Origin: Deltaproteobacteria bacterium TL4
GTDB lineage: Bacteria; SAR324; NAC60-12
Length of the DNA stretch: 24,628 bases
Direction of reading: 5' to 3'
NCBI GenBank assembly: GCA_051382335.1
Contig: JBBCAX010000104.1
Span: 1-24,628 of the forward strand
In this document: positions 211-24,274 of the stretch, one piece after another
How the letters are laid out: the number at the start of each line of letters is the position of its first letter
How positions within the stretch are numbered: position 1 is the first letter of the stretch
The notes under the pieces: model-generated
What the model was told of the DNA's origin: nothing
What the model saw: the letters and a program-made list of their open reading frames with translations, nothing else
Databases searched by the model: none
Position numbers and translations under genes: made by a program

Positions 211-1905
211 ATGATCGCTTTAAAAGATATAAAAATTGGGGTGAGATTAGGATTGAGTTTTGCTATGGTTTTGTTGCTTTTTGCAGGAACCGTAGCCATA
301 ACCTATTCGTCACTCCTGTTAGTAGAGGCTAATACAAAATTTGTTGAAGAAGAAAGCCTGCCCTTCGTGCTGCTTGCCGATACGATGGTTAATAACAACA
401 TACAGGTTCAGCAGTGGCTTACCGATGTTTCGGCCACGCATAATCCTGATGGCTACAAAGACGCTGAAGAAGCGGCTCAGAACTTTAAAAATGGAATCGA
501 GAAGTTTAAAGCCATGTTTAGAGAGGAAAATAACACAAACGCTCTCAGGGAGATAGAGGAATTGGAAGCCGCCTTTAACCCCTATTATGAGACGGGAAAA
601 CGAATGGCCAACACCTATATAACGCAGGGAATCGAGGCCGGTAATCAAATAATGAAGCAATTTGACGAAACAGCCGCAGCAATGTCAGAAAAGGTTTTAA
701 AATTCCAAAAAATGCAGATTGAGGAGACCACTCAAAAGATAAAGGGGATTGAAGTATCTGTAAATGACGCTGGGAAGGCACTATTCTCCATAGGGGCAAT
801 TGTGATATTCCTGACAATTCTTAATTCCTTTTTTCTCACACGAAGCATCACGAAGCCTTTGAAAGAAAGTGTCCAGGTCGCTGATCGTTTGGCAGAGGGA
901 GATCTCACAGTAGCGATTGAGGTAAAAAGCAAGGATGAAACGGGTCAATTGCTTGCGGCCATGAAGAACATGACCGAGCAGATTCGAAAGGTTGTCAGCG
1001 ATGTAAGAGGGGCAAGCGATAATGTTTCCGCAGGAAGTCAACAACTCAGTTCGGCCTCGCAGCAATTGTCCCAGGGTGCCACAGAACAGGCGGCCGCGGT
1101 TGAAGAGACTTCCGCTTCCATGGAGCAAATGAGTTCCAATATTCAACAAAATGCCGATAATTCCAACCAAACCGAAAAAATCGCCTCAAAATCAGCTTCT
1201 GACGCCAGAGATAGCGGGCAGGCGGTAGAAACCGCGGTAACCGCCATGAAAGAGATTGCCAAAAAAATCTCGATCATTGAGGAGATTGCGCGGCAAACCA
1301 ACCTGTTAGCCCTGAATGCCGCGATTGAGGCGGCTCGGGCAGGGGAACATGGAAAAGGCTTTGCGGTTGTCGCGTCTGAAGTTCGTAAACTCGCAGAACG
1401 CAGCCAACAGGCCGCGGGAGAAATCACAAAACTGTCCTCTTCCAGCGTGGCCGTCGCGGAAAAGGCGGGGATGATGTTGAAGCAACTGGTTCCTGATATT
1501 CAAAAAACAGCGGAATTGGTGCAGGAAATCAGTGCGTCCAGTAATGAGCAAAACTCAGGGGCGGAACAAATCAACAAAGCGCTTCAACAATTGGATAGCG
1601 TCATTCAACAAAATGCCAGTGCTTCTGAGGAAATGGCTTCTACCGCGGAAGAGCTTTCTTCCCAGGCACAACAACTCCAGGATACGATTGCCTTCTTCAA
1701 CATTGGGACAAATGAAGAACCTCATGCGAGAGCAAAGAAGCTCACAACCCAGCATGTCCCCATGAATCCTCCTAAGGGGACTCTTACGGCGACCATGCAA
1801 AAGAAAAAATTACCAACCCCTGCTCCCAAGAAGGCACTGTCTCACTCCTTGGATTTGGATATGGGGACGGATGATAAGACAGATAATGAGTTTGAGCGTT
1901 ATTAA
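211..1905 (+). CDS. Methyl-accepting chemotaxis protein (TM-periplasmic sensor-TM-HAMP-signalling domain, C-terminal pentapeptide)
   Basis: Two hydrophobic segments; HAMP motif (ITKPLKE...LAEGDLT...DETGQLL); signalling tip [40 protein letters not shown]; ends in EFERY; AAGGA upstream of the ATG. Confidence 0.97.
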
Positions 1906-1946: not shown

Positions 1947-2489
1947 ATGTCAGTAAACGAAATCACCGAAACGATGCAATATTTAACCTTTATTCTGGAT
2001 GACGAGATCTTTGCTGTCGATATTTCCAAGGTACGGGAAGTTCTCGAGTATACGGCCGTGACCAAGGTTCCCAGAGTGCCTGAATTCATTCGCGGTGTGA
2101 TCAATCTCCGTGGGAATGTGGTTCCTGTTGTTGATTTGAGACTTAACTTTGGAATGTCGCTCACAAAGCGCACAATCAATACGTGTATCATTATCGTAGA
2201 GGTAACCATCAACGATGAAGCCCTAGTCTTGGGAGCCTTGGCGGATTCTGTCAAGGAAGTGATTGATATGGACCCCGAACAAATTGAACCTCCTCCAAAA
2301 ATCGGAACAAAACTCAGAACAGAGTTCATCAAAGGCATGGGAAAATACAATGATGATTTTGTCATCATCCTTGATATTGACAGAGTTTTCTCTGTGGATG
2401 AGCTTTCAATAGTTCAGAATGTAAACGAAAGTAGTGTTTCCGCTAAAGAACATAAGTCGGCGACAACGATGGAGGCCAGTCCTGCGTGA
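1947..2489 (+). CDS. cheW: Chemotaxis coupling protein CheW
   Basis: QYLTF..DEIFAVDISKVREVLEY..VTKVP..PEFIRGVINLRGNVVPVVDLR and GALADSVKEV motifs. Start placed at ATG 1947, behind AAGGAAG, rather than the GTG at 1932. Confidence 0.96.
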   Translation: MSVNEITETMQYLTFILDDEIFAVDISKVREVLEYTAVTKVPRVPEFIRGVINLRGNVVPVVDLRLNFGMSLTKRTINTCIIIVEVTINDEALVLGALADSVKEVIDMDPEQIEPPPKIGTKLRTEFIKGMGKYNDDFVIILDIDRVFSVDELSIVQNVNESSVSAKEHKSATTMEASPA

Positions 2490-2493
2490 TGAT

Positions 2494-5400
2494 ATGACAA
2501 CCCGCATTCTTCATGGGACATGGCTACCTGCTATTGAAAAAGGCTTCTATCACTCAGGACAATTTGTGCTATGGTTGGAAGGGGTGGAGGAACATTTTCT
2601 CACACCCCAGATCTCCTACCCTTCTTGTGGTTTCCTCTCTGATGAACTCAAACCCCTTCTCCTTTCCTTTCAAGCTCAGCTCAATCTTAAGCTGGAGTAT
2701 GGTCAAAAATTCATAACCCTGCCAGGGGTTAATTCGATTCCACTTTCCTCGACCTACGCCTTTGATGTTGAAGCCCTGAATAAAAAAATCACCTGGTTGA
2801 CCCTGGCCTTTCAGGGCGCGTTGCTTGAAGAAATACAGCATCTTCGTCTCTTTTGCGCTGAAGTCACTGCGCATGGCACCGTTGAAATTGGAGAGGAATT
2901 GAGAATTTGGTTTTTGTGGCTGGCAGAGTTAATTACTCTGCTTGCTGAAAACTTATTTCTACCTTCCTGGGTCATCAAGGAAGTCAACCATCCTGACGGA
3001 ATGTTAACCCTTGCGCCTCTGTGGGAATTCAGCGCAAGACGATTACAGGGCTTGGCAAAAAAATATGAAAGCCTGCTTCCGCTTTCAGCAACCTCTGTCG
3101 CTCATGACGCACAAGGCGGTTTTTGGAACAAACAGGAACTTCTGACGCACTTCGCAAATTGTTTTTTGAACGCTCAAGTTCGTCAAACGCAACTTCCACC
3201 CAAGTTACGGTTAAAAATCAATCCCACCTTTTTAAAAGCATTTTTCCAAAAAAACCAGGAGTTTGAAAGCACCAGGGAATTCTATGTAGCGTTTGAAGAA
3301 TGGAAAACATCGCTTCCCCTTTATCAATTAAATCAGAATTTTATTTTAGGTTTCAGGGTCATAGAACCACCCTCAGCTTCAGAACCTTGGTGGCTTCGCC
3401 TGTTTATTGAATCTCGTGTTGACGCTTCTTATAAACTTGATTTGAGAAAATATGGAATGCTGTCCTCCAATGAAAAAAAGGAATTATACGCTTATTTTGG
3501 ACAAGGATTTGAGACCCAACTGGAAACCATGCTGCACTTGACCAAACATTTTTATCCCCCCCTGGAAATGATCTTGAATCAGGCCTCTCCGTTTGAGCTT
3601 TGTCTTGATTCCCAGCAAATCGTAGAATTTTTTGAAGACTATTCTGGTCTCCTGGAAGCTTATGGTTACCGGGTTATCATTCCAAACTGGTGGCAGGAAA
3701 AGAAGCCTTTCAGCAAAGTGGTCCTAAAGGTTGAAACCGATCCAGCTCAGAGTTCACGCTCGAAAGGGCACCCGACTCAAAATCTGGTACAGACGGTGGT
3801 CAAGCATCACTATGAGCTTATGGTGAATGGGGTTCTTTTGGACAAAAAAAAATGGGAACAGTTGGTTCAGGAGAAAATTGCCTTACTTCAAATCAGAGGA
3901 CAGTGGATCCACCTGGATCACGAGCATTTGCGCCAATTGATGGAGAACTGGGATCATTACGCCAAAACAACACAGCCTTCAATTTTGGAAATCCAAAGAC
4001 TTCATACGCTTGAAGCCGAAGTGGAATTGGAGCTGGACGAAAACACCCAGCAACTTTTGGCGCCCTTACATCGCCGTGGTGGATGGCCTGAGGTTCCACT
4101 TTCCCAAACTGAAATCGAGCTGAGACCTTATCAAAATGAAGGAGTCGCCTGGTTGCAGTATTTAAAAACTTTGGGCATTAATCCCTGCCTGGCGGATGAT
4201 ATGGGCTTGGGCAAAACCTATCAGGTATTAGCGTTCCTTTTTCACGAAATGGAAACAGAAGCCCCGTCTTTAAGCAACCTGGTGGTCGTTCCTTCCTTTA
4301 TTTTAGGGAATTGGAATCGTGAGATTAACACGTTTTCTTCCAAATTTCAGGTGTACACTTATTATGGCAGACAACGGATTCAGCATGTTCAGAAATTGAA
4401 AAAACATATCGCATCGTTTCAGATTGTTCTGACGTCTTATGGAACCCTAATGCATGATATTGAACTGTTACGGGAGCTTGAATGGCACCGGATTATTTTG
4501 GATGAAGCCCAACTGATCAAAAATCCTCATAGTTTGCGGACCCAATGGATCAAATCGCTCCAGGCCAGGCACCGTCTTGCGTTAACGGGAACGCCCATTG
4601 AAAATCGTCTTTTGGATTTATGGTCCATTTCAAACTTTCTCAATCCAGGCTATCTTGGGGAAATGAAAACGTTTATCCGTGATTTTGAAGGACCCATTCA
4701 ACAGAAAAAAGATCCTGAAAAGGAAAAACAATTGAGATCCCTGACTGAAGTTTTTGTTTTAAAACGCAATAAAACCGATAAAAATTTAATCAATGATTTA
4801 CCTGATAAAATTGAAATTACGGAACCTTATTATCTGACACTGGAACAAATCTCGCTCTATGACGCCTTGGTTATTGATACCGTAGTTAAGTTGAAAGAAA
4901 GCCAGGAAGAACACAAACCGATGTTGAAAGTATCTTTAATTGGCAAACTCAAATTACTCTGTGATCATCCCGGTATTTTTTTGGAAGACAACAGCGAATT
5001 TTCTCTGGAGCGTTCGAACAAACTGGCACTAATGCTGGAACAGGTCAAGAACGTGATTGCCGCCAATGAATGCGCGATTATCTTTACTCAGTACATCAAA
5101 GCCGCCAAACCGCTACTTTCCTACGTTGAGCGTTATATCACCCCTCATACTTATTTTATTTACGGGGGTCACAGTCCGATGCAGCGTGACAAAACCATTG
5201 AGGCGTTTAAACAAAGTCCAGGTGGCGCGGTTTTTATCATTTCACTCAAGGCAGGAGGTGTTGGCCTGAATTTAACCAAAGCCAATCATGTGTTCCATTT
5301 TGACCGCTGGTGGAATCCCGCTGTTGAAAATCAAGCCAGTGACCGTGCCTATCGGATAGGACAGAAAAAGAAGGTCACTATCCACCATTACATTGGAGTC

Positions 5401-5592
5401 GGCACTTTGGAAGAAAGCATCCATAACATGATTTATAACAAATCAACCTACAGTCAATTGATTCAAAGTCCTTACGAGGAGGAACAAAATCCGCCTTTGT
5501 TTGATACGCTACTGACACAACAGGTGATCGCGTCCATGAATGACGAGGATTTTGTCAGCTTGGTAACACGTAACGAAGGAGAGTCGTTATGA
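2494..5592 (+). CDS. SNF2-family (Swi2/Snf2) helicase-like ATPase with long N-terminal region (DUF3670-like)
   Basis: Motif I LADDMGLGKT, II DEAQ, III TGTPIEN, V SLKAGGVGLNLT, VI QASDRAYRIGQ. N-terminus ILHGTW and the LLQIRGQWIHLD segment are typical of SWIM-associated bacterial SNF2s. Start placed at ATG 2494, 4 nt after the cheW stop. Confidence 0.95.
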   Translation: MTTRILHGTWLPAIEKGFYHSGQFVLWLEGVEEHFLTPQISYPSCGFLSDELKPLLLSFQAQLNLKLEYGQKFITLPGVNSIPLSSTYAFDVEALNKKITWLTLAFQGALLEEIQHLRLFCAEVTAHGTVEIGEELRIWFLWLAELITLLAENLFLPSWVIKEVNHPDGMLTLAPLWEFSARRLQGLAKKYESLLPLSATSVAHDAQGGFWNKQELLTHFANCFLNAQVRQTQLPPKLRLKINPTFLKAFFQKNQEFESTREFYVAFEEWKTSLPLYQLNQNFILGFRVIEPPSASEPWWLRLFIESRVDASYKLDLRKYGMLSSNEKKELYAYFGQGFETQLETMLHLTKHFYPPLEMILNQASPFELCLDSQQIVEFFEDYSGLLEAYGYRVIIPNWWQEKKPFSKVVLKVETDPAQSSRSKGHPTQNLVQTVVKHHYELMVNGVLLDKKKWEQLVQEKIALLQIRGQWIHLDHEHLRQLMENWDHYAKTTQPSILEIQRLHTLEAEVELELDENTQQLLAPLHRRGGWPEVPLSQTEIELRPYQNEGVAWLQYLKTLGINPCLADDMGLGKTYQVLAFLFHEMETEAPSLSNLVVVPSFILGNWNREINTFSSKFQVYTYYGRQRIQHVQKLKKHIASFQIVLTSYGTLMHDIELLRELEWHRIILDEAQLIKNPHSLRTQWIKSLQARHRLALTGTPIENRLLDLWSISNFLNPGYLGEMKTFIRDFEGPIQQKKDPEKEKQLRSLTEVFVLKRNKTDKNLINDLPDKIEITEPYYLTLEQISLYDALVIDTVVKLKESQEEHKPMLKVSLIGKLKLLCDHPGIFLEDNSEFSLERSNKLALMLEQVKNVIAANECAIIFTQYIKAAKPLLSYVERYITPHTYFIYGGHSPMQRDKTIEAFKQSPGGAVFIISLKAGGVGLNLTKANHVFHFDRWWNPAVENQASDRAYRIGQKKKVTIHHYIGVGTLEESIHNMIYNKSTYSQLIQSPYEEEQNPPLFDTLLTQQVIASMNDEDFVSLVTRNEGESL

Positions 5593-6413
5593 AATTAAAG
5601 TGGTGGAGTCATCAATTTTGGGAAACTTTTCAAACTCAATGTGAACCCTATGTTTTAGCGCGGGCAAGGCCTTATGTCTCGAAAAACAAAATACACGCCT
5701 TTGCGCTTGAAGCGAACACGGTCCATGCCCTTGTGGTCGGAAGCAAGAATCCTGTTCTCGAAATTGCGGAGGGAACCGAGTTTGAAGTACGAGTTGAGTT
5801 TGCCGAATTCATGCCTGAGGAAAAGGAAATTTTACTTGAAAAACTGGGTCATAATCTGAATTTTATCCATGATTTGAAAAACAAGGAACTCTCTGAAAGC
5901 CTGCTCCCCCTTTTTGAGCATTGGGGATATGCGTTGATACCGCGCTTTCGAGAGGAGTTTGAGCTGCAATGCCACTGCCCTGATTGGAATCATCCTTGTG
6001 AACATACGGCAGGAGTACTCTATTATTTTGCGAGAGAAGTCAGCAAAAACCCAATGCTGCTGTTTGAAATCAGGGGGTTCTCCAAAGCCGAACTGTTGAA
6101 AAAAATGGAGGCAACTCCAGAAGTGGAGACGCCTTGTGAGCAGGAGGAACAAACGGTTCCTTTGGAAAAAGCAGAATTCCTATACCCACAAGTGAGTCAG
6201 GTTACTGTGCCTGAATCGATGATTGCGTCTTTTTGGAAAACCGCTTCCGACAGTGATGAAGATCCCATTTCGACGCCCCCCCGTCAAACCTCACGCCCCT
6301 CCCCCTTCTTTGAGTCTCAGAACGACTACCCTGATTTCTGGAATCAGCCTTTTTCCTTCAGGGATGTGCTGAATTCCCTTTATCAATGGATCAGAAACGC
6401 CGTAAAGATATGA
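5589..6413 (+). CDS. SWIM zinc-finger protein (SNF2 partner)
   Basis: CHCPDWNHPCEH matches CxCx5CxH (SWIM); flanking WWS..F, LARARPY and NPMLLFEIRG motifs; ATGA overlap with the SNF2 stop. Confidence 0.93.
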   Translation: MKLKWWSHQFWETFQTQCEPYVLARARPYVSKNKIHAFALEANTVHALVVGSKNPVLEIAEGTEFEVRVEFAEFMPEEKEILLEKLGHNLNFIHDLKNKELSESLLPLFEHWGYALIPRFREEFELQCHCPDWNHPCEHTAGVLYYFAREVSKNPMLLFEIRGFSKAELLKKMEATPEVETPCEQEEQTVPLEKAEFLYPQVSQVTVPESMIASFWKTASDSDEDPISTPPRQTSRPSPFFESQNDYPDFWNQPFSFRDVLNSLYQWIRNAVKI

Positions 6414-6599: not shown

Positions 6600-9500
6600 T
6601 TAGGGCGCACAGTATTCAGGGCAGGGATGTTTGGCCTTAAAGGCGTCAATGCTCGTAATCGGTGTTTCGTTAACGGGAACATCCTTGTGCGTGTTTCCAA
6701 GGAATCTCAGGTTGAGTCGTTTTCTGGAAGGAGGCATCAGGTATTGGCGAACCACCTCACTTAACGTTTCCAATTGAATTTTTTCGACCGCAAGGATGTC
6801 TTCGCTCACATGATCAAACTGGGCCTCCTTTTCAAAAGCAATGCTGAACAAGCGAGAGGCCTGTTCCGCGATGGAGGAGGGTTTTTTGAGCTTTGCGTTG
6901 ATTACGGCTTTTTTGAGCGCTTCCACTTCATTCGGGGGAAGCTTTAAAAGAGACTCAATAAACGTCGGAAAATAAGCGTCTACACGTTGTTGCAGTTCTC
7001 CCGGGGAGTATTTTCCAGACTGAATAAGAAATAACAAACCCAGGGTTTTCTCCTCTTGAGTCATGCCCGCGTCTAACAAATAACCTAATTGTTGCTGCGT
7101 TCTCATTTCAGTATAAAAAAGAGGTTGTAACATTTTGCTGATGACCAACAGAGCGCCCTGAAGCTCCGGATTCGTTTGTCCCACTTGAAACTGAACCACC
7201 AGCGCTGAATTATTCACTGGAACGCTATGAGAGAACGTATAATCCGAAGATGGGGGCAACTGAATGATGCGTTCCATGAATCGTTCCTTTGGTGATAGGG
7301 AGGTTCCCCCCAAATTCTGACTGACCACAGCTACGGTTTCTTTCACCAAATCCCGTTGAAGATTTCCATACGACAATCCTTGAATGTAGTTTTGAGCATA
7401 AAGCGTTTTTGCATAAGCTTGAAGTTGCTTCAGCGTTAAGCTCTGGATCACCTGTTTGTATTGTTCTATGGAGTACTTTTGAGACTCCAAAATGAGATTC
7501 TGGAAATACAAGGCTTGTTGATAGGGTTGTTGATAATCAAAATTGAGATAGGTTCTTAGCAATTGTTCTTTGAGCGAGTCAAAAATTTCAGCAGTGAGGG
7601 TGACGTTCTTTAGCTGTTCAGAAATTTCCTTGGCCAGTTCGAGGATCCGGTCTGAATAGCCGTTAAAAGTCAGCATGATGCCTTTTTTTTGGGAACTGAG
7701 GCTAAAATCAAGTCCTGCTAAACTGACCATGTATCGGAATTCGTTGAGCTGCTCTTCGATGGCATTGACGTATAATTGCGAAAGCACCGCGTCTCGGGGC
7801 GTCTTATAAGTTTCAGGGGTGTGGATTAAGAAAATCAAATGGGCTTTAGGTGTTTGGAACCGAAGATCTTGTTGAAACCAAATTTCTCCTTGAGGGGCGT
7901 CCATAATTTTTTCAGGAAGTCCCATGACATGTTTCTGAACTAATTGCCTCAGGGTGGATTCCTGACCAAACGTCGTTAATGAAGCCTCGGTTTTAAATTG
8001 TTCCCAGGAGGCGTAAGTTTTTCCCTGTAAGCTTTTGAGGGTCTCCATCAGAGAGTCCGCCAGTTGTTCCTGCTTAAGACCAACTACGGATTGATACGTG
8101 AGTTTAAAGAGCGTGGTGTTGGTCAATAAAGTCAGGTTTTGTGGAATGAATTTATTTTTTTCAGGTAAGTGTAACTCCTTCGATAAGGGCCTGGAATACC
8201 ATTCTGCCAGCCACTTTGAAGGGGTTTGGGTATAGGCATATTCCGCGCTATAATAGGTTTCTTTTTGTGTGACGTGTACGTTGCGAGCGGCCAACAGGAC
8301 TAACATATTGTCAGGAGTCAGGCGAAAAAGAAAGTGATCAAACTTCTTGGGATCATAGCTCATATAAAGGAAGGGCACTTTTTCTACTTGATCCATGGGA
8401 ACATAATGAAGCAACGAGGCCAAGTCAATCACGGCAGGGGTTCCTTCCTGTTTTTCCGAAAATTGATAATCCAGTTCCGCCATTTGTTTCATTTCGTTGT
8501 AGATATATTCCGGCAGGCTCTGTTGACGTAACAAACGAATGTATTCAAAAACATGCTGTAACACCGTTTTGTAGTTTTCCAACCCTTGTGGGGTCAGCGT
8601 AATGGAAATCGTAAAGGCTGAATAAGAATTGGTGGATAAACTGCCACCTGCGGACAAGCCCGTCACCAGGTTTTTTTTCTTTAAGAGCGAAAGCAAACTG
8701 CCTTTGCCTTCATGGCCCATTAAAAAACCCAAAGTCTGAAGAGGTTTACTTGGGTAATAGTTTTCTGAGGGAGGCAGAGGAAAGAATAGCTGCAGCACTC
8801 TTGTATCTTTGATGGTTTTGACCTGTAACAATCTCAATAGGGACTTCTTTTCCATTAAAACAGGAGGATAGGTAAAGGTGGGTAATTTATGGTTGATGAC
8901 CCCGGAAAAGCGCGGAACAATCCATTGTTGCAGGGTATCCAGATTTTCCTTTCCCAAAACAACAAGTGTCATCAAATTACTCGAATAATGAGTGTTGTAG
9001 AATTCGAGTAATTCTTCTTGTGTCGTGCCTTGCAACGTCTCTAAATTTCCTGTTGAGAAGTTTTTTTCAGGGTGCTTGGATTCCAGGGGTAATGAGGCCA
9101 CTCTTTGCATTCTCCAGTAGTCACTTGGAATATTTTTGGAGTGTTCTGAATCAACGGCTTCCATTTCACGTTTTACAAATTCAGGACTGAAAAGAGGCGC
9201 AACAAAGAATTGAGAAAAACGGTCAAGTGCGCCTTCCAAATGATCCGCTGATATTTGAAAATGGTAATTGGTGCTATCCGAGGTAGTGAACGCATTGCTA
9301 TAGCCATCATTTTCCGAAATGAAATTCTGGTAATTCCCAACCTCCGGATATTTTTTTGTGCCTAAAAAAAGCATGTGTTCTAAAAAGTGAGCCAGTCCCG
9401 CTCGGGAGGGAGGATTATTCAAGGACCCCACGGAAACACTCAGTGCCGCGGAAGATCGGTGAATGGTAGGGTCGGAGATGATCAGAACTTTCATTTGATT

Positions 9501-9641
9501 GGGTAACAAAAAACGGCGGTAGGTTCGTTCGGGAAATCTGGGGTCTGTTTGGTCGGCTTTTTGGGCCCATCCGACAAAGCTTTGTTGGATTAATAAAACA
9601 ATAATACAAAAGATAAATCGAGATTTAAGATAATATTTCAT
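6600..9641 (-). CDS. Secreted M16A zinc metallopeptidase (pitrilysin/insulinase family)
   Basis: Inverted zinc motif GLAHFLEHMLFLGT (HxxEH), NAFT, REMEAVDSEH, GHEGKGSLL, MRTQQQLGY; signal-peptide-like N-terminus. Confidence 0.96.
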   Translation of the reverse strand: MKYYLKSRFIFCIIVLLIQQSFVGWAQKADQTDPRFPERTYRRFLLPNQMKVLIISDPTIHRSSAALSVSVGSLNNPPSRAGLAHFLEHMLFLGTKKYPEVGNYQNFISENDGYSNAFTTSDSTNYHFQISADHLEGALDRFSQFFVAPLFSPEFVKREMEAVDSEHSKNIPSDYWRMQRVASLPLESKHPEKNFSTGNLETLQGTTQEELLEFYNTHYSSNLMTLVVLGKENLDTLQQWIVPRFSGVINHKLPTFTYPPVLMEKKSLLRLLQVKTIKDTRVLQLFFPLPPSENYYPSKPLQTLGFLMGHEGKGSLLSLLKKKNLVTGLSAGGSLSTNSYSAFTISITLTPQGLENYKTVLQHVFEYIRLLRQQSLPEYIYNEMKQMAELDYQFSEKQEGTPAVIDLASLLHYVPMDQVEKVPFLYMSYDPKKFDHFLFRLTPDNMLVLLAARNVHVTQKETYYSAEYAYTQTPSKWLAEWYSRPLSKELHLPEKNKFIPQNLTLLTNTTLFKLTYQSVVGLKQEQLADSLMETLKSLQGKTYASWEQFKTEASLTTFGQESTLRQLVQKHVMGLPEKIMDAPQGEIWFQQDLRFQTPKAHLIFLIHTPETYKTPRDAVLSQLYVNAIEEQLNEFRYMVSLAGLDFSLSSQKKGIMLTFNGYSDRILELAKEISEQLKNVTLTAEIFDSLKEQLLRTYLNFDYQQPYQQALYFQNLILESQKYSIEQYKQVIQSLTLKQLQAYAKTLYAQNYIQGLSYGNLQRDLVKETVAVVSQNLGGTSLSPKERFMERIIQLPPSSDYTFSHSVPVNNSALVVQFQVGQTNPELQGALLVISKMLQPLFYTEMRTQQQLGYLLDAGMTQEEKTLGLLFLIQSGKYSPGELQQRVDAYFPTFIESLLKLPPNEVEALKKAVINAKLKKPSSIAEQASRLFSIAFEKEAQFDHVSEDILAVEKIQLETLSEVVRQYLMPPSRKRLNLRFLGNTHKDVPVNETPITSIDAFKAKHPCPEYCAP

Positions 9642-10950: not shown

Positions 10951-12495
10951 GTGTCTCATTACTTGCCTCCATTCGTCGGTTTGATTTGTGGTCTACTGTT
11001 GTTTACCGCCTGTGAAGCGGAACATCCCAAAGCGACAGAACCTGATAGTCCCTCAACCGTCACAGGGACGATGTTTGAACCTCCGCAGGAAATTGAATCA
11101 GGGGCTCAAAAATATTTTGAGAATCCTGTCTCCATTGTCCCTGTAGACTGGAATTACGATCAAAGCAACGATTCCTATCTGGTTGTCAATCCTTTGAGTG
11201 ACCAAGGTCATGGCGTTGAAGCGGATGGAACCATTGCTGTGCTGAACAAACTGAGTCATCCGAGCGGAACGTCGGTCTGGAATGATTTTCTTCAACTGTC
11301 TCAGCCTCTTGCCGCGCTTCCGGAAGCTTCGCTTTCATGGCGTCAACATCTTATCGTCGGACCTTTTAACAGAAATGGCAGTTTTGATCCGGTTTCGACG
11401 CTGGATATGATTATTGTGGATAGCAGTTTACAGCGCGTGGAGGTATGGAAAGGGACGGGGAACCAAAATTTTGAACAAAGTCAATCCTTCAGGGTGGAGT
11501 TGCTTCCCATTTTTGTGGTTTCAGGGCAATGGAATGATGATAATCAGGATGGGGTGATTAATGCTTCAGATTTTCTGGATATCGCTGTGATCAATAAAGG
11601 AGGAAATACACTTTCTGTTTTATTCAATGATGGCTATGCCGCCTTCGCTTCTTATGAAGTCACTCAAAGCTCCGTCGACCTTTATAAGCTTTTGGACAAA
11701 ACGCCCCCTCCTTCAGAGGTTCTGACACAGGTGCAAACCTTGATTGGCCAGCAGTTTACCACTAAAGGCGCCTTTCTTTCCGCATTGACTTCAGTGCTAG
11801 GGGAAGAACTGACGGCACAGTATCAAGAGCAAATCTTTAAGTATACAACGACCATCGTCTTAGAAACGGGGTTGATACCGATGAGAGCCGTGACCGGCGA
11901 TTGGAATCACGATGGAGCTCCCGACTTGGCGACCTTATCCCATGGAGAGTCCAAAATAAAAATATGGCTCAATGAGGGTACAGGAAAATTTACTAAAGTT
12001 GAAAATGAGGTGCTGGTTGAGGCCAGTCCCTCCGATCTCAAAGCAGGAGATTGGGATCATGATGGGGTTCTCGATTTAGCGGTAACCAGTAATAACTCCA
12101 AGCACAAAGTCCTTTCCTTGTTGTATGGTGAGGGGACCGGCCGTTTTGGCCAACGCTATGACCTTCCCGCGGGGAAGGGGCCGGCTTCGATTACTGTCGC
12201 CGATTTCAATGGTGATCAAGTTCCGGATTTTGCGATTGCAAATCAATTCTACTTTGCCACTCAATCGGTTGCCCTGCGGACAGGCGATGTGGTCCTGTTG
12301 TTGAGTAACGGAACCAAGGCTAAAGCTTCCAAAGAAAACCCGCTTTATGTCCAGCATTCGTTTGCCGTAACCTCGGATCCGATGGGCAGTCCTCCCAGTT
12401 ATGTATTCGCAGACGATATAAACCAGGATTCCAAACCTGATTTGATTTTAGCGCTTCCCTACAAAAAAAAGCTATCAATCCTGATTCAAAAATAG
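10951..12495 (+). CDS. FG-GAP/VCBS-repeat (beta-propeller) lipoprotein
   Basis: Lipobox-like LLLFTAC; repeats GDWNHDGAPDLA, GDWDHDGVLDLA, ADFNGDQVPDFA, DDINQDSKPDL; GTG start 13 nt after the cyaY stop. Confidence 0.9.
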   Translation: MSHYLPPFVGLICGLLLFTACEAEHPKATEPDSPSTVTGTMFEPPQEIESGAQKYFENPVSIVPVDWNYDQSNDSYLVVNPLSDQGHGVEADGTIAVLNKLSHPSGTSVWNDFLQLSQPLAALPEASLSWRQHLIVGPFNRNGSFDPVSTLDMIIVDSSLQRVEVWKGTGNQNFEQSQSFRVELLPIFVVSGQWNDDNQDGVINASDFLDIAVINKGGNTLSVLFNDGYAAFASYEVTQSSVDLYKLLDKTPPPSEVLTQVQTLIGQQFTTKGAFLSALTSVLGEELTAQYQEQIFKYTTTIVLETGLIPMRAVTGDWNHDGAPDLATLSHGESKIKIWLNEGTGKFTKVENEVLVEASPSDLKAGDWDHDGVLDLAVTSNNSKHKVLSLLYGEGTGRFGQRYDLPAGKGPASITVADFNGDQVPDFAIANQFYFATQSVALRTGDVVLLLSNGTKAKASKENPLYVQHSFAVTSDPMGSPPSYVFADDINQDSKPDLILALPYKKKLSILIQK

Positions 12496-17284: not shown

Positions 17285-19492
17285 TTAAAGATAGAAATAA
17301 TGAAGTGAGGTATTCTGATCCCCTTTGGCTCGGTTTTGGTCGATGTTGAAAATCACGATCACTTCCGTTTCTATCTTGAGTTTTACGTTCATCACGACCA
17401 AGTCCGCGGTTTCAATCATCTGAAACAAACCTCGTCCAGCCCCTCCTTTCTTTTCATTTAAAGAGCCGGCTTTCCCCTCGTAACAACTTTGAAGGTAATC
17501 CAGAATAGTTCCCCGATCGAGCGCGCCAAAGGGATCCACGGTTGAAATCGCCAGCAGTACGCCGTCACAAGCGTAGGAAAAGGTGCCTTCCTCTTCGGGG
17601 GAAAGATAAACCGGAACAGTTCGTGGCAAATGATTGTAAATTGGCTTACCTGACGCATCTGTCGGCGCATCATAAATGGCATTCATCAAAAGTTCCTCAG
17701 CCACTATTTCGCATTTGGAGATGATGCTTTGGCGCAGACCCAGATCCTTAAAATGGGAGGCCATTTTATTGACTAAGTCTTCACGCTCGTTGCTGCCTTT
17801 AATGGGATGTTGAATGATATCCACCCCCCAATTTAAATATTTTTCGATTCCAAATAAATCTTGGCTGATTAACTTACTGATGGTGGTCGTAATATTTTTT
17901 AAGGTAAAATTTCGATCCTCCTCATTTCGGGAAACAATATTGGAAATGAACGGATTGGCCTTAAGAATCGGGAGGTAGGATGACGCATTTTCCGAGGTCA
18001 TCAGAACCGTTTGAACCTTCTCGTTTTTTTCTTTAGCGATCTGACATAAGCCTATCAATTCTATATTGGCACAGACTATATCGTAATGTTGTTCTTCAAT
18101 CTGTCTGATTCCCGCTTCCATGGTGTCCACAATATCCAATTTAACCCCGGTTCCTCCTAAGGCCAATTTTGCGACAATTTGCTGTTTTTTCGTGGTTTCC
18201 GCAAGCAGTACCCGCTTATTGCTGATGGCTTGTTCTGAAATATAGAGAGAGGTAATAGGACGTAAGGCTTCTTCCAGTTTATGCGCATTCCGGGTTATTT
18301 GTCGTAGGGGTTTGCCCATTTTCTTGCTTTTGAGTTGATGGAGTTCTGCCAAGGTCTCCAGGAGTTGTCTCAGGTGGGTGTCTTGTACCGTTCGCAGTTT
18401 TTCTAATATTTTAGTTTTTGTGGTGTGTAAATCTTCCAATTTCCGGTTACTGGCCGCAAGCGTTGTGTTTTGCTGTTCCAGTTGAGTCATTGATTCATGA
18501 AGAAGATTGGTCCGTTGTTCCACTTTCCGTTCCAATTTATAGGTTAACCCCAGGTTGCCCAAGGCAATGGCCAAAAATTGACAAAGGGTATCGGCATAAT
18601 GTTTTTCTTTTTCGTCTAAATGAAACGGAGCCTTGGAGTTGATTTTAATCAAACCAAGCAACGCCTTCTCACTTTGAATGGGCATTTGGAGGGTTTTGCC
18701 TTTTACGGTGCATCCCGCTTTTGCCTGGGTCAGGGATAGGGGGACTTTCCTTGAATAGGAATGATTGGTGTTCTGAATACCTTCGAGTTTTATGACAGGA
18801 ATCTCATTGATGGAGGGACTTGTTTTCATGGAAAACTTGGAATATCCGACTTCGTTTTTGTTGTTCTCTTCTCGAAAATAGATATCAACGTGTACCGATT
18901 GTCCCAAATAGAGTTCGTGAACAATAATATTTGAGGCTTGGATTAAGACGGTGAACGTATCTTTGGAGGAAGAGATGGCTTTGATCGCTTCCAACAAACG
19001 CTCTAATTGCAGATTCGCTTTTTTTAATTGCTGGGTATATTGCTTTTCTAGTTGTTCTCGTTCCTCCGCTTGACGGACCATTAATTTATTTTGCTGAGCA
19101 AGTCTGACAAAAACATCAACTTTGCTTCTTAAGATACGGATATCGATAGGTTTTAGTAAATAGTCTGAAGCCCCCGACTGGTATCCTTTCAGAATGTTGT
19201 CATCATCTTTAGAAAGTGCTGTCATAAAAATGACGACGGGTATGGGATTGAGTCCTTCTAACTTTTGAATGCGTGACATGGTTTCAAATCCATCCATGAT
19301 CGGCATGCTGACATCCAGAATGATTAAATCAAACAGGTCCTGTTTCAAATGTTCCAACGCTTGAACGCCCGAGAGTGCTTTATAGAACTGTCGATTTTCT
19401 TTTTTTAAAGCCTCTTCCAAGAAAAAAAGATTGTCAGGTTGATCATCAACGAGTAGGATCTTGATTAATGGATCATTGGAGTTTGTGGTCAT
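17285..19492 (-). CDS. Multidomain signalling protein: REC, GAF-like, coiled coil, degenerate REC, HATPase-like domain
   Basis: Intact N-terminal REC (LLVDD, ILDVSMP, FMTA, LLKP); GAF-like MPIQSEKALLGLIKI...F; second REC-like RVLLAE...YDIVCAN; C-terminal EELLMNAIYDA, VDPFG and GGAGRGL boxes. Confidence 0.85.
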   Translation of the reverse strand: MTTNSNDPLIKILLVDDQPDNLFFLEEALKKENRQFYKALSGVQALEHLKQDLFDLIILDVSMPIMDGFETMSRIQKLEGLNPIPVVIFMTALSKDDDNILKGYQSGASDYLLKPIDIRILRSKVDVFVRLAQQNKLMVRQAEEREQLEKQYTQQLKKANLQLERLLEAIKAISSSKDTFTVLIQASNIIVHELYLGQSVHVDIYFREENNKNEVGYSKFSMKTSPSINEIPVIKLEGIQNTNHSYSRKVPLSLTQAKAGCTVKGKTLQMPIQSEKALLGLIKINSKAPFHLDEKEKHYADTLCQFLAIALGNLGLTYKLERKVEQRTNLLHESMTQLEQQNTTLAASNRKLEDLHTTKTKILEKLRTVQDTHLRQLLETLAELHQLKSKKMGKPLRQITRNAHKLEEALRPITSLYISEQAISNKRVLLAETTKKQQIVAKLALGGTGVKLDIVDTMEAGIRQIEEQHYDIVCANIELIGLCQIAKEKNEKVQTVLMTSENASSYLPILKANPFISNIVSRNEEDRNFTLKNITTTISKLISQDLFGIEKYLNWGVDIIQHPIKGSNEREDLVNKMASHFKDLGLRQSIISKCEIVAEELLMNAIYDAPTDASGKPIYNHLPRTVPVYLSPEEEGTFSYACDGVLLAISTVDPFGALDRGTILDYLQSCYEGKAGSLNEKKGGAGRGLFQMIETADLVVMNVKLKIETEVIVIFNIDQNRAKGDQNTSLHYFYL

Positions 19493-22913: not shown

Positions 22914-23123
22914 AGTTTTAATTATGAACTGGGTGATGAAAGCCTCCGGCGGCAAGCTTTGAAAAGCTTGACCCAATTTTTTAGAACTTGGAAGAAACTC
23001 TCCGAAGAAGACATTAGACATCTTTTCAAAATAGAACCTGGATTTTAAAGGATTTGTGGGTATGAGCCTCCTCCTTTACAGCTTTTCAGAATTTCAAATA
23101 CATTGTAAGGAGGACCAATGAGC

Positions 23124-23317
23124 TATAGAGGTTCATTTAAATAAATTCAGAAAACTCATCCTGTTGCGTGATCCGTTTAAACAACGCTGTTTCAGGAGTG
23201 CCAAAGCTTGCTTTGGCCAGAAAGGCGAAGGCTTTTCTTGGGCTTTGGCCAAAGCTTGCTTTGGCACTCCACAGTCTGGGTTAGACTCAAAGGAATTTAT
23301 TTAAATGAACGTCTATA
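23124..23317. mobile_element. 194-bp MITE-like element, copy A
   Basis: 25-bp terminal IR TATAGA(G/C)GTTCATTTAAATAAATTC with 1 mismatch; internal inverted GGAGT-GCCAAAGC-NN-GCTTTGGC doublet; near-identical second copy at 23772-23965. Confidence 0.9.
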
Positions 23318-23331
23318 CTTTGATCAACTGA

Positions 23332-23432
23332 TAGTGTTTCAGAAAAGTATTTTGTGCTGGGAGCGCAGGCGTCCCGCCTGCTTTTGCGGACAAGATGCCC
23401 GCGTTTCCAGGAAAGACTTATCTGAAAGTCTA
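23332..23432. mobile_element. Degenerate MITE-like element carrying a REP-like doublet
   Basis: Ends TAGTGTTTCAGAAAAGT / ACTTATCTGAAAGTCTA (14/17 IR); inside, CTGGGAGCGCAGGCGTCCCGCCTGC and the inverted GCGGACAAGATGCCCGCGTTTCCAG. Confidence 0.7.
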
Positions 23433-23510: not shown

Positions 23511-23771
23511 TACTTAATAAGTGAACAGGTCTTAAAAAAAGACGCAAGGAAGAAAAAGAAAAACCGCTTGGAGGCTCAGCAAGGGACAGCGTCCAAAAAC
23601 CAACTGTTCCGAAAAATTAAAATTTGAAGAAGGCCGCTATCGTTTGACATAGCGTTTTTGTAATGTTAGTGAAAAATTTAACAGGGGCGCATCCAACCGA
23701 TGGGGGAGTGTCTTGAGATACCTAAGGGGGTTTCCTGATTTTGCCTATAGAGTTTGGGAAATTAAACGACC

Positions 23772-23965
23772 TATAGACGTTCATTTAAATAAATTCCTTT
23801 GAGTCTAACCCAGACTGTGGAGTGCCAAAGCAAGCTTTGGCCAAAGCCCAAGAAAGGCCTTCGCCTTTCTGGCCAAAGCAAGCTTTGGCACTCCTGAAAC
23901 AGCGTTGTTTAAACGGATCTCGCAACAGGATGAGTTTTCTGAATTTATTTAAATGAACATCTATA
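23772..23965. mobile_element. 194-bp MITE-like element, copy B (inverted relative to copy A)
   Basis: Reverse complement of 23124-23317 with 3 substitutions by manual comparison; same terminal IR. Confidence 0.9.
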
Positions 23966-24007: not shown

Positions 24008-24274
24008 ATGTTTGACTTTCTCTTGAGCGGCTGGCACGTTTTCCGCACCGCACCGCACCGCACCGCACCGCACCGCACCGCACCGCACCGCACCGCACCG
24101 CACCGCACCGCACCGCACCCGCTATTTTATCATTCTGACCAATCATTTCGCGCCTTTGCTCCAGTCCTCTCTTTTATTTTAAGAAAAATTTCCGTCCCGC
24201 TCTACTTCGTCGGTTTTCTGCTGATGTTCGCGTCTCCTGCCAGAGCTGGTCCGCTCTATGATATTTTGTCATAA
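24008..24274 (+). CDS. Putative short ORF or gene remnant containing a pentanucleotide repeat and a signal-peptide-like C-terminal half
   Basis: AAAGGGGG upstream of the ATG; RTAPH repeats; RKISVPLYFVGFLLMFASPARA-G (basic, hydrophobic, AxA); stop 8 codons after the putative cleavage site. Confidence 0.4.
   Translation: MFDFLLSGWHVFRTAPHRTAPHRTAPHRTAPHRTAPHPLFYHSDQSFRAFAPVLSFILRKISVPLYFVGFLLMFASPARAGPLYDILS
24043..24117. repeat. Microsatellite (CCGCA)15
   Basis: 15 perfect tandem CCGCA units counted directly. Confidence 0.98.

Follow-up and report, generated by a model that had tools for sequence, protein, structure and literature searches.

Rickettsia palindromic elements (RPEs; Ogata 2000 and 2002, as summarized in PMC10969869) are repeats of about 150 bp reported from Rickettsia; about half of them lie in ORFs, and they are treated as MITEs, miniature inverted-repeat transposons (PMC10969869). 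The module that we describe here resembles them in being a short repeat that sits in frame in many unrelated genes and is translated as a conserved extra peptide (PMC10969869). It differs from them in its length of 193 nt, its short terminal inverted repeats (TIRs), its 8-bp target duplication, its candidate partner IS and its presence in several phyla, and also in that the copies examined all lie in frame in long ORFs, its fold has been solved and it forms tandem arrays. The module works like an RPE but we do not file it as one; the likeness is one of description. With non-coding MITEs it shares small size, TIR boundaries, a target duplication and the lack of a transposase (PMC10969869), whereas the whole interior of the module is taken up by a single open frame, which encodes a folded domain that purifying selection maintains. 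PARCELs offer a further parallel, being palindrome-coded amphipathic repeat modules with a patchy spread, often in membrane proteins (PMC2996958). However, PARCELs are tandem repeats of 25 residues each, in ORFs without a known function (PMC2996958), whereas the module is a 62-aa single insert in conserved enzymes, with TIRs and a target duplication. In full-text literature that took in few subscription papers and no supplements, we found no description of the module or of its candidate partner IS.

The window, a 24,628-nt stretch of DNA from Deltaproteobacteria bacterium TL4 (contig JBBCAX010000104.1), carries two of these inserts, one in an M16 peptidase and one in an FG-GAP repeat protein (Table 1). 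We propose that both belong to one family of 62-65-residue domains that is likely translated from a 193-nt MITE moved by an unclassified IS with GGCA ends. Elsewhere in the window, an SNF2 helicase with DUF3670 is followed by a small CxC..CxH protein that has no Pfam match and carries what we take to be a SWIM-like motif (2434-6413), and a 735-aa response-regulator protein has a GAF-like middle and a C-terminal part that has no domain assignment (17285-19492). Near the end lie a palindromic repeat of roughly 190 nt, present twice in inverted orientation (23120-23320 and 23770-23965), a copy of another dispersed palindrome (23351-23424) and a run of GCACC pentamers (about 24044-24100). Rfam gave no match on the window.

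Table 1. Locations of the module copies, their hosts and related elements. The first four rows are positions in the window.
Feature	Location	Strand	Description
M16A peptidase ORF	6600..9641	minus	pitrilysin/IDE-like zinc peptidase, 1013 aa; host of first module copy
Module copy in M16A peptidase	7923..8108	minus	aa 512-573, at C-terminal end of hinge linker between N and C halves
FG-GAP repeat protein	10951..12495	plus	514 aa, lipoprotein-like N-terminus (by eye); host of second copy
Module copy in FG-GAP blade loop	11653..11847 (quoted peptide to 11850)	plus	65 aa
LptA-like array protein	L001:2538-4898		6 module copies
PPIase array protein	L002:2676-4766		3 module copies
Cas7-11 copies in 7ZOL/7ZOQ chain B	about 1073-1126, 1139-1187, 1204-1248		region about 1073-1260
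IS on C82	C82:1-1701 (L268)		open 506-aa transposase-like ORF; several copies
IS on C344	C344:991-2815 (L192)		second IS of same unclassified family; ORFs of family 506-548 aa
Young non-coding MITEs	C110:14325-14476, C322:273-424, C148:7832-8041, C326:10392-10737, C253:18008-18241 and four more		152-346 nt, GGCA ends

The M16 ORF begins with an N-terminal hydrophobic segment, retains an intact HFLEH at residues 85-89 and matches IDE at E 1e-160. With this HxxEH motif and four M16 domains (PF00675, PF05193, PF16187 and PF22456), it is an M16A peptidase with the two-half architecture and zinc motif of pitrilysin and IDE. In IDE, the hinge linker that joins both halves comprises residues 516-541 (PMC8836115). 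When aligned to human IDE, the peptidase breaks at residues 506/569 opposite 493/496 of the IDE chain, such that about 60 extra residues stand where IDE advances by only three. In full-length IDE numbering the break falls at 538-541, the very end of the 516-541 hinge. The original prediction of an insert between two motifs that a short linker joins in IDE was therefore correct, and a paralogous M16 peptidase of a relative (G015) also lacks the insert, with 28 aa between FIP and W where the TL4 peptidase has 90 aa.

Human IDE and the G015 paralogue thus have no segment of this length. All orthologues examined across the order do: 39/39 have a long spacer of 86-98 aa, one of them shortened to 76 (39 of 40 relatives were taken in, and one fragmented gene was left out). 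The M16 insert is therefore not particular to the TL4 genome, although in a few of the most remote orthologues its sequence matches only weakly or not at all. In 10 close orthologue pairs, dN/dS was 0.06-0.33 for the insert and 0.04-0.13 for the remaining gene, and the insert is under purifying selection. Together with its presence in 39/39 orthologues, this low dN/dS indicates an old M16 copy that has been maintained. Its fixation at the end of the hinge dates back to the common ancestor of the order. The inserts of the M16 orthologues score 2-9/15 for TIRs and 0-5/8 for target duplication, which is background level, and against distant comparators the net gain is 60-62 aa where about 66 are expected.

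The FG-GAP copy has a different history. Its spacer is 90 aa here and 23-26 aa in 17/17 orthologues, which were found in 17 of 40 relatives. All 17 orthologues are empty sites, and the FG-GAP copy is therefore private to the TL4 lineage among the genomes searched. This copy exceeds the family profile by 3 residues, which lie in helix 1, and its net gain, measured on distant comparators, is 64-67 aa where about 70 are expected. Its TIR (5/15) and duplication (4/8) are also at background level. The absence of a TIR and duplication at both window copies is expected for old copies, and their membership of the family therefore rests on protein homology.

Are the two inserts related? Direct BLASTP of the M16 insert against the FG-GAP insert gave no match, and an iterative search of the TL4 genome seeded with the FG-GAP copy (P0001) left the M16 copy below threshold (E 2-9). 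Profiles that held out one side found the other. A DNA profile built from 20 other copies aligned by codon, none from M16, recovered the M16 copy at E 3.4e-4 and 23 bits, where the best reversed decoy reached 11.8 bits at E 1. A protein profile of 37 copies with no M16 sequence (A1) found the M16 window copy at E 0.0085 and 10 of 28 M16 orthologue ORFs at E <= 1e-3. In the opposite direction, a profile built only from M16 inserts found the module in 10 other ORFs, and no decoy was listed at E < 2. Finally, hhalign of A2 against A1 gave a probability of 98.96 and E 7.8e-18 over the full length. AlphaFold models of both inserts (pLDDT 89.5 and 81.8) agree in their layout: a short strand is followed by two helices, a bridge and two further helices.

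These profile comparisons establish the M16 and FG-GAP inserts as homologous, in line with the kinship that had been proposed from an alignment by eye, and the structure models agree. The competing view is that the M16 insert shares no ancestry with the family or is merely convergently helical, with the FG-GAP copy alone a member. The missing BLASTP match and the weak scores of single copies fit that view, as does the fact that such helical profiles also match the designed protein m4D2 (E 1e-3 to 1e-5). It is nonetheless very improbable: the reciprocal profile matches exceed their decoys, hhalign aligns the two sides across their full length at E 8e-18, the ends match, the predicted elements come in the same order, and both profiles rank the same protein, Cas7-11 of Desulfonema magnum, first in PDB searches.

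In the Cas7-11 structures (PDB 7ZOL/7ZOQ), the profile matches three tandem copies of the module at E 3e-18. The second of these is also the best structural match to the module model (Z 7.6, rmsd 2.0, 62 aligned; next Z 5.1), although helical bundles can reach a Z of 7.6 (VIA) by chance, and the score carries weight only together with the sequence match. Foldseek against the PDB returned nothing at E <= 0.001, and no other Cas7-11 entry was among the matches listed in the same PDB profile searches. The Cas7-11 structure paper describes insertion subdomains in Cas7.4, one of which is a coiled-coil tail (PMC9935389). We find three tandem module copies within Cas7-11, and the available text of that source names no mobile repeat (PMC9935389). 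The frame of the module folds into a compact four-helix unit, as seen experimentally inside Cas7-11. A RAMP-domain protein of TL4 (C126:12250-15663) has a weak possible module copy.

We counted the module across the TL4 genome with a 179-sequence profile that contained no TL4 copies and included some M16 orthologue inserts (E < 0.05). This gave 27 module copies in 20 ORFs; the lowest accepted score was 17.2 bits and the best decoy 12.8. Hosts include an LptA-like protein (6 copies), a PPIase (3), LptD, PstC, LepB, ArnT-like and MotB-like proteins and a CHASE2 kinase, and further FtsA, DnaE, an AddA-type helicase, a DciA-family protein and three transposases. In relatives, the LptA-like and PPIase arrays reach 9-10 copies. 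Tandem arrays of 3-10 copies, known from LptA-like proteins, PPIase and Cas7-11, probably arose by local duplication. Hosts in other lineages comprise an Hsp70-like and a pyruvate phosphate dikinase-like protein, both named by eye, and Cas7-11. In a distant family of the phylum (L178-L182), two adjoining cytochrome c genes each have a module inside the haem domain, and this pair adjoins an apparent nitrous oxide reductase gene (by eye).

The module was present in 63/63 relatives in the order, in 8/24 genomes in the rest of the phylum and in 72/88 genomes of the phylum overall, with 15 matches in the UASB270 genome and 23 in a Candidatus Vecturithrix genome. In another phylum it was found in 2/176 genomes. 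A genome-wide pattern scan returned 3 loci only, and the phylum range is therefore a lower bound. A word-indexed protein search with A1, which is insensitive, gave 8 matches only, a search of viral contigs and plasmids with one query gave no module, and the ESM Atlas gave no usable match.

No Pfam or NCBIfam family exceeded its curated cut-off for either insert. When 37 members were searched, there were single weak matches at most (best E 0.013) and no covering model; DUF2795 and DUF5789 touch module arrays below cut-off. Across 37 copies no column is invariant or conserved at the 90% level, and the conserved positions look like core residues. Inteins start with Cys, Ser or Thr, end in His-Asn and have the Hint fold. 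The module starts with Phe or Tyr, ends in a KHA-like motif and is modelled as helical, and we set an intein aside. The picture of a small promiscuous helical domain without a named family, grafted into loops of unrelated proteins, therefore stands as originally drawn. The lineage specificity proposed with it does not, since the module also occurs in other phyla and in Cas7-11. Specificity for the envelope fails as well: 8/20 host ORFs lack a hydrophobic segment, including FtsA, DnaE, the AddA-type helicase, the DciA-family protein and the three transposases. What remains of the suggested enrichment in exported proteins is a mild skew, as 12/20 hosts have a hydrophobic segment against a baseline of 33-37% among 3615 long ORFs (p roughly 0.03, by hand approximation); the module is not restricted to exported hosts.

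Young copies reveal the anatomy of the element at the DNA level. Among six copies from unrelated genes in different genomes or metagenomes, identity is 65-88% across 193 nt without a gap, and for two copies in one genome the 84% match is confined to the limits of the module. The 193-nt unit takes in 7 nt ahead of the Phe codon and runs as far as the Ala codon of KHA; these first 7 nt (conserved GGCAAGT) lie upstream of, and outside, the protein profile. Consensus ends drawn from 41 copies outside this phylum read GGCAAGTTTTAAA on the left and, in reverse complement, GGCATATTTCAAAAT on the right, and the two mirror each other. Young copies have 15-nt TIRs, with a mean of 10.5/15 in four metagenome copies and 13/15 at best. 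Further inward, 11-nt complementarity was 4.63 observed against 4.42 +/- 0.08 after synonymous recoding, so that it is mostly explained by the amino acids encoded.

Target duplications are 8/8 in two copies (L136 and L186) and 7/8 in a third (L164). Overall, duplications of at least 7/8 flank 3/132 copies where 0.1 are expected, with the register chosen from L136 and L186 and orthologues included in the 132. The element plus its duplication (193+8 = 201 nt) makes 67 codons, and only one of the six frames is open, that of the module. FtsA of TL4 is longer than 29/29 orthologues by exactly 66 aa, which equals a 190-nt copy (one codon short) plus 8, and a relic duplication of 5/8 flanks it. Filled and empty sites can be compared at two loci, FtsA (29/29 orthologues empty) and FG-GAP (17/17). 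In public marine metagenome runs from one study, 14 of 16 contigs matched the L136 stretch over just part of their length and departed from it at the element borders, and depth was 25-50 inside the element and 0-4 outside. The best of these runs may be the source of L136 itself, and the piled contigs are divergent copies.

BLASTN among 23 TL4 copies gave no cross-matches, which indicates no recent burst in this genome. The TL4 genome holds no intact pair of module-type TIRs at module length, and neither it nor the relatives' loci examined hold near-identical or non-coding module copies. Every module copy examined is in frame within a long ORF. No intergenic or out-of-frame copy was found, in searches that outside TL4 were mostly protein-based and could miss such copies. 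A normal MITE should leave intergenic and out-of-frame copies, and the MITE reading does not account for their absence from these searches.

A candidate partner exists in the TL4 genome itself. The ends of the IS on C82 (GGCATGTTT...AAACATGCC) equal the outer right end of the module, and its 8/8 duplications were recovered across contig breaks. What the module and this IS have in common is limited to the outer 9-13 nt, the first 9 nt being the same, and to 8-bp duplications. Nine of 132 facing pairs of GGCA ends in TL4 have duplications of 7-8/8 and are non-coding MITEs, several with internal palindromes. The related IS on C344 has more than 1,500 homologues, few of which bear a name. Transposases of this family score far below cut-offs (ISL3 at E 2e-4 to 0.012, IS256 at E >= 0.03, DUF6399 at E 0.003), and with no model over cut-off for ISL3 or IS256 we leave the family unclassified. 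The C82-type transposase was found in only 2/41 related genomes, TL4 included, with a fragment in 1/5 others, and not in G042, the holder of the best young copy. Assemblies often lose IS elements, but this does not count as evidence for the partner.

Other vehicles were considered and set aside. For IS1595, which we take to have GGC ends and an 8-bp duplication, one 148-aa fragment was found, and the ends matched the C82/C344 family instead. The module of an IS630 lies inside the DDE region, and we read it as one more target. Paired matches that had resembled a two-ORF IS in the distant family were cytochromes c.

Could the module be a promiscuous domain of the ordinary kind, which recombination, gene conversion and tandem duplication have spread and whose inverted ends are a by-product of the codons for FKIT and ILKHA? 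Arrays of 3-10 copies do need local duplication, recoding does account for most of the inner complementarity, and intergenic copies are indeed lacking. However, this explanation does not cover the 8/8 repeats that flank copies in two unrelated genes, the conserved GGCAAGT ahead of the protein profile, the exact 66-codon gain of FtsA, the sharp DNA borders or the match to the ends of a TL4 IS, and we consider it improbable. The suggestion that the module docks or targets envelope proteins as a tag, binding the wall, the S-layer or a secretion partner, has even less to recommend it. The copies in FtsA, DnaE, AddA and transposases defeat the idea of an export tag, and those in DciA and Cas7-11 also speak against a docking role, as do the lack of any 90%-conserved column and the insert-free orthologues of FG-GAP and FtsA. 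In its favor are the excess of hosts with a hydrophobic segment, the LptA-like and PPIase arrays and the purifying selection on the module, but the tag is hardly credible.

We therefore favor the translated MITE. A transposase of the unclassified IS family would recognize GGCA(T/A)GTTT ends, duplicate 8 bp and move the 193-nt element. Insertion in the one open phase would keep the host frame and add a domain in a surface loop, while insertions into genes in the other phases would be purged. Surviving copies would then drift in DNA, with selection keeping the fold. IS-driven transposition and in-frame phase selection are what we infer, and so is a MITE origin of the window copies, which are old and have no DNA signature. 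Against this account stand that lost signature, the net lengths of the two window copies, which fall a few residues below the ideal, the failure to find a near-identical or non-coding module copy in TL4 or in the relatives' loci examined, and the scarcity of the C82-type transposase among related genomes.

The M16 copy is probably a tolerated passenger, which we take as the default reading, and later co-option is possible. Its retention across the order makes it possible that the module tunes the hinge opening of the peptidase. A more far-reaching proposal is that a cross-phylum MITE lineage survives only in genes, with a self-folding domain as its licence to insert; that it hops via an undescribed IS family; that it seeded the essential proteins FtsA, DnaE, LptD and LepB and a CRISPR effector; and that its M16 hinge copy was domesticated to tune enzyme opening. 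We put this forward tentatively, as an account that is rather unlikely to hold in full.

With the module, the path by which a folded protein domain likely arose from selfish DNA can be traced. One family shows young copies with transposon ends, old copies in essential genes, a candidate transposase and a structure in the PDB. Domain birth from mobile DNA, a route long under discussion and proposed for RPEs, becomes directly testable, and the partner IS family, with its many mostly unnamed homologues, comes into view. The sites of insertion also show which loops of FtsA, DnaE, LptD, M16 peptidases and Cas7-11 can accommodate a domain of 60 residues.
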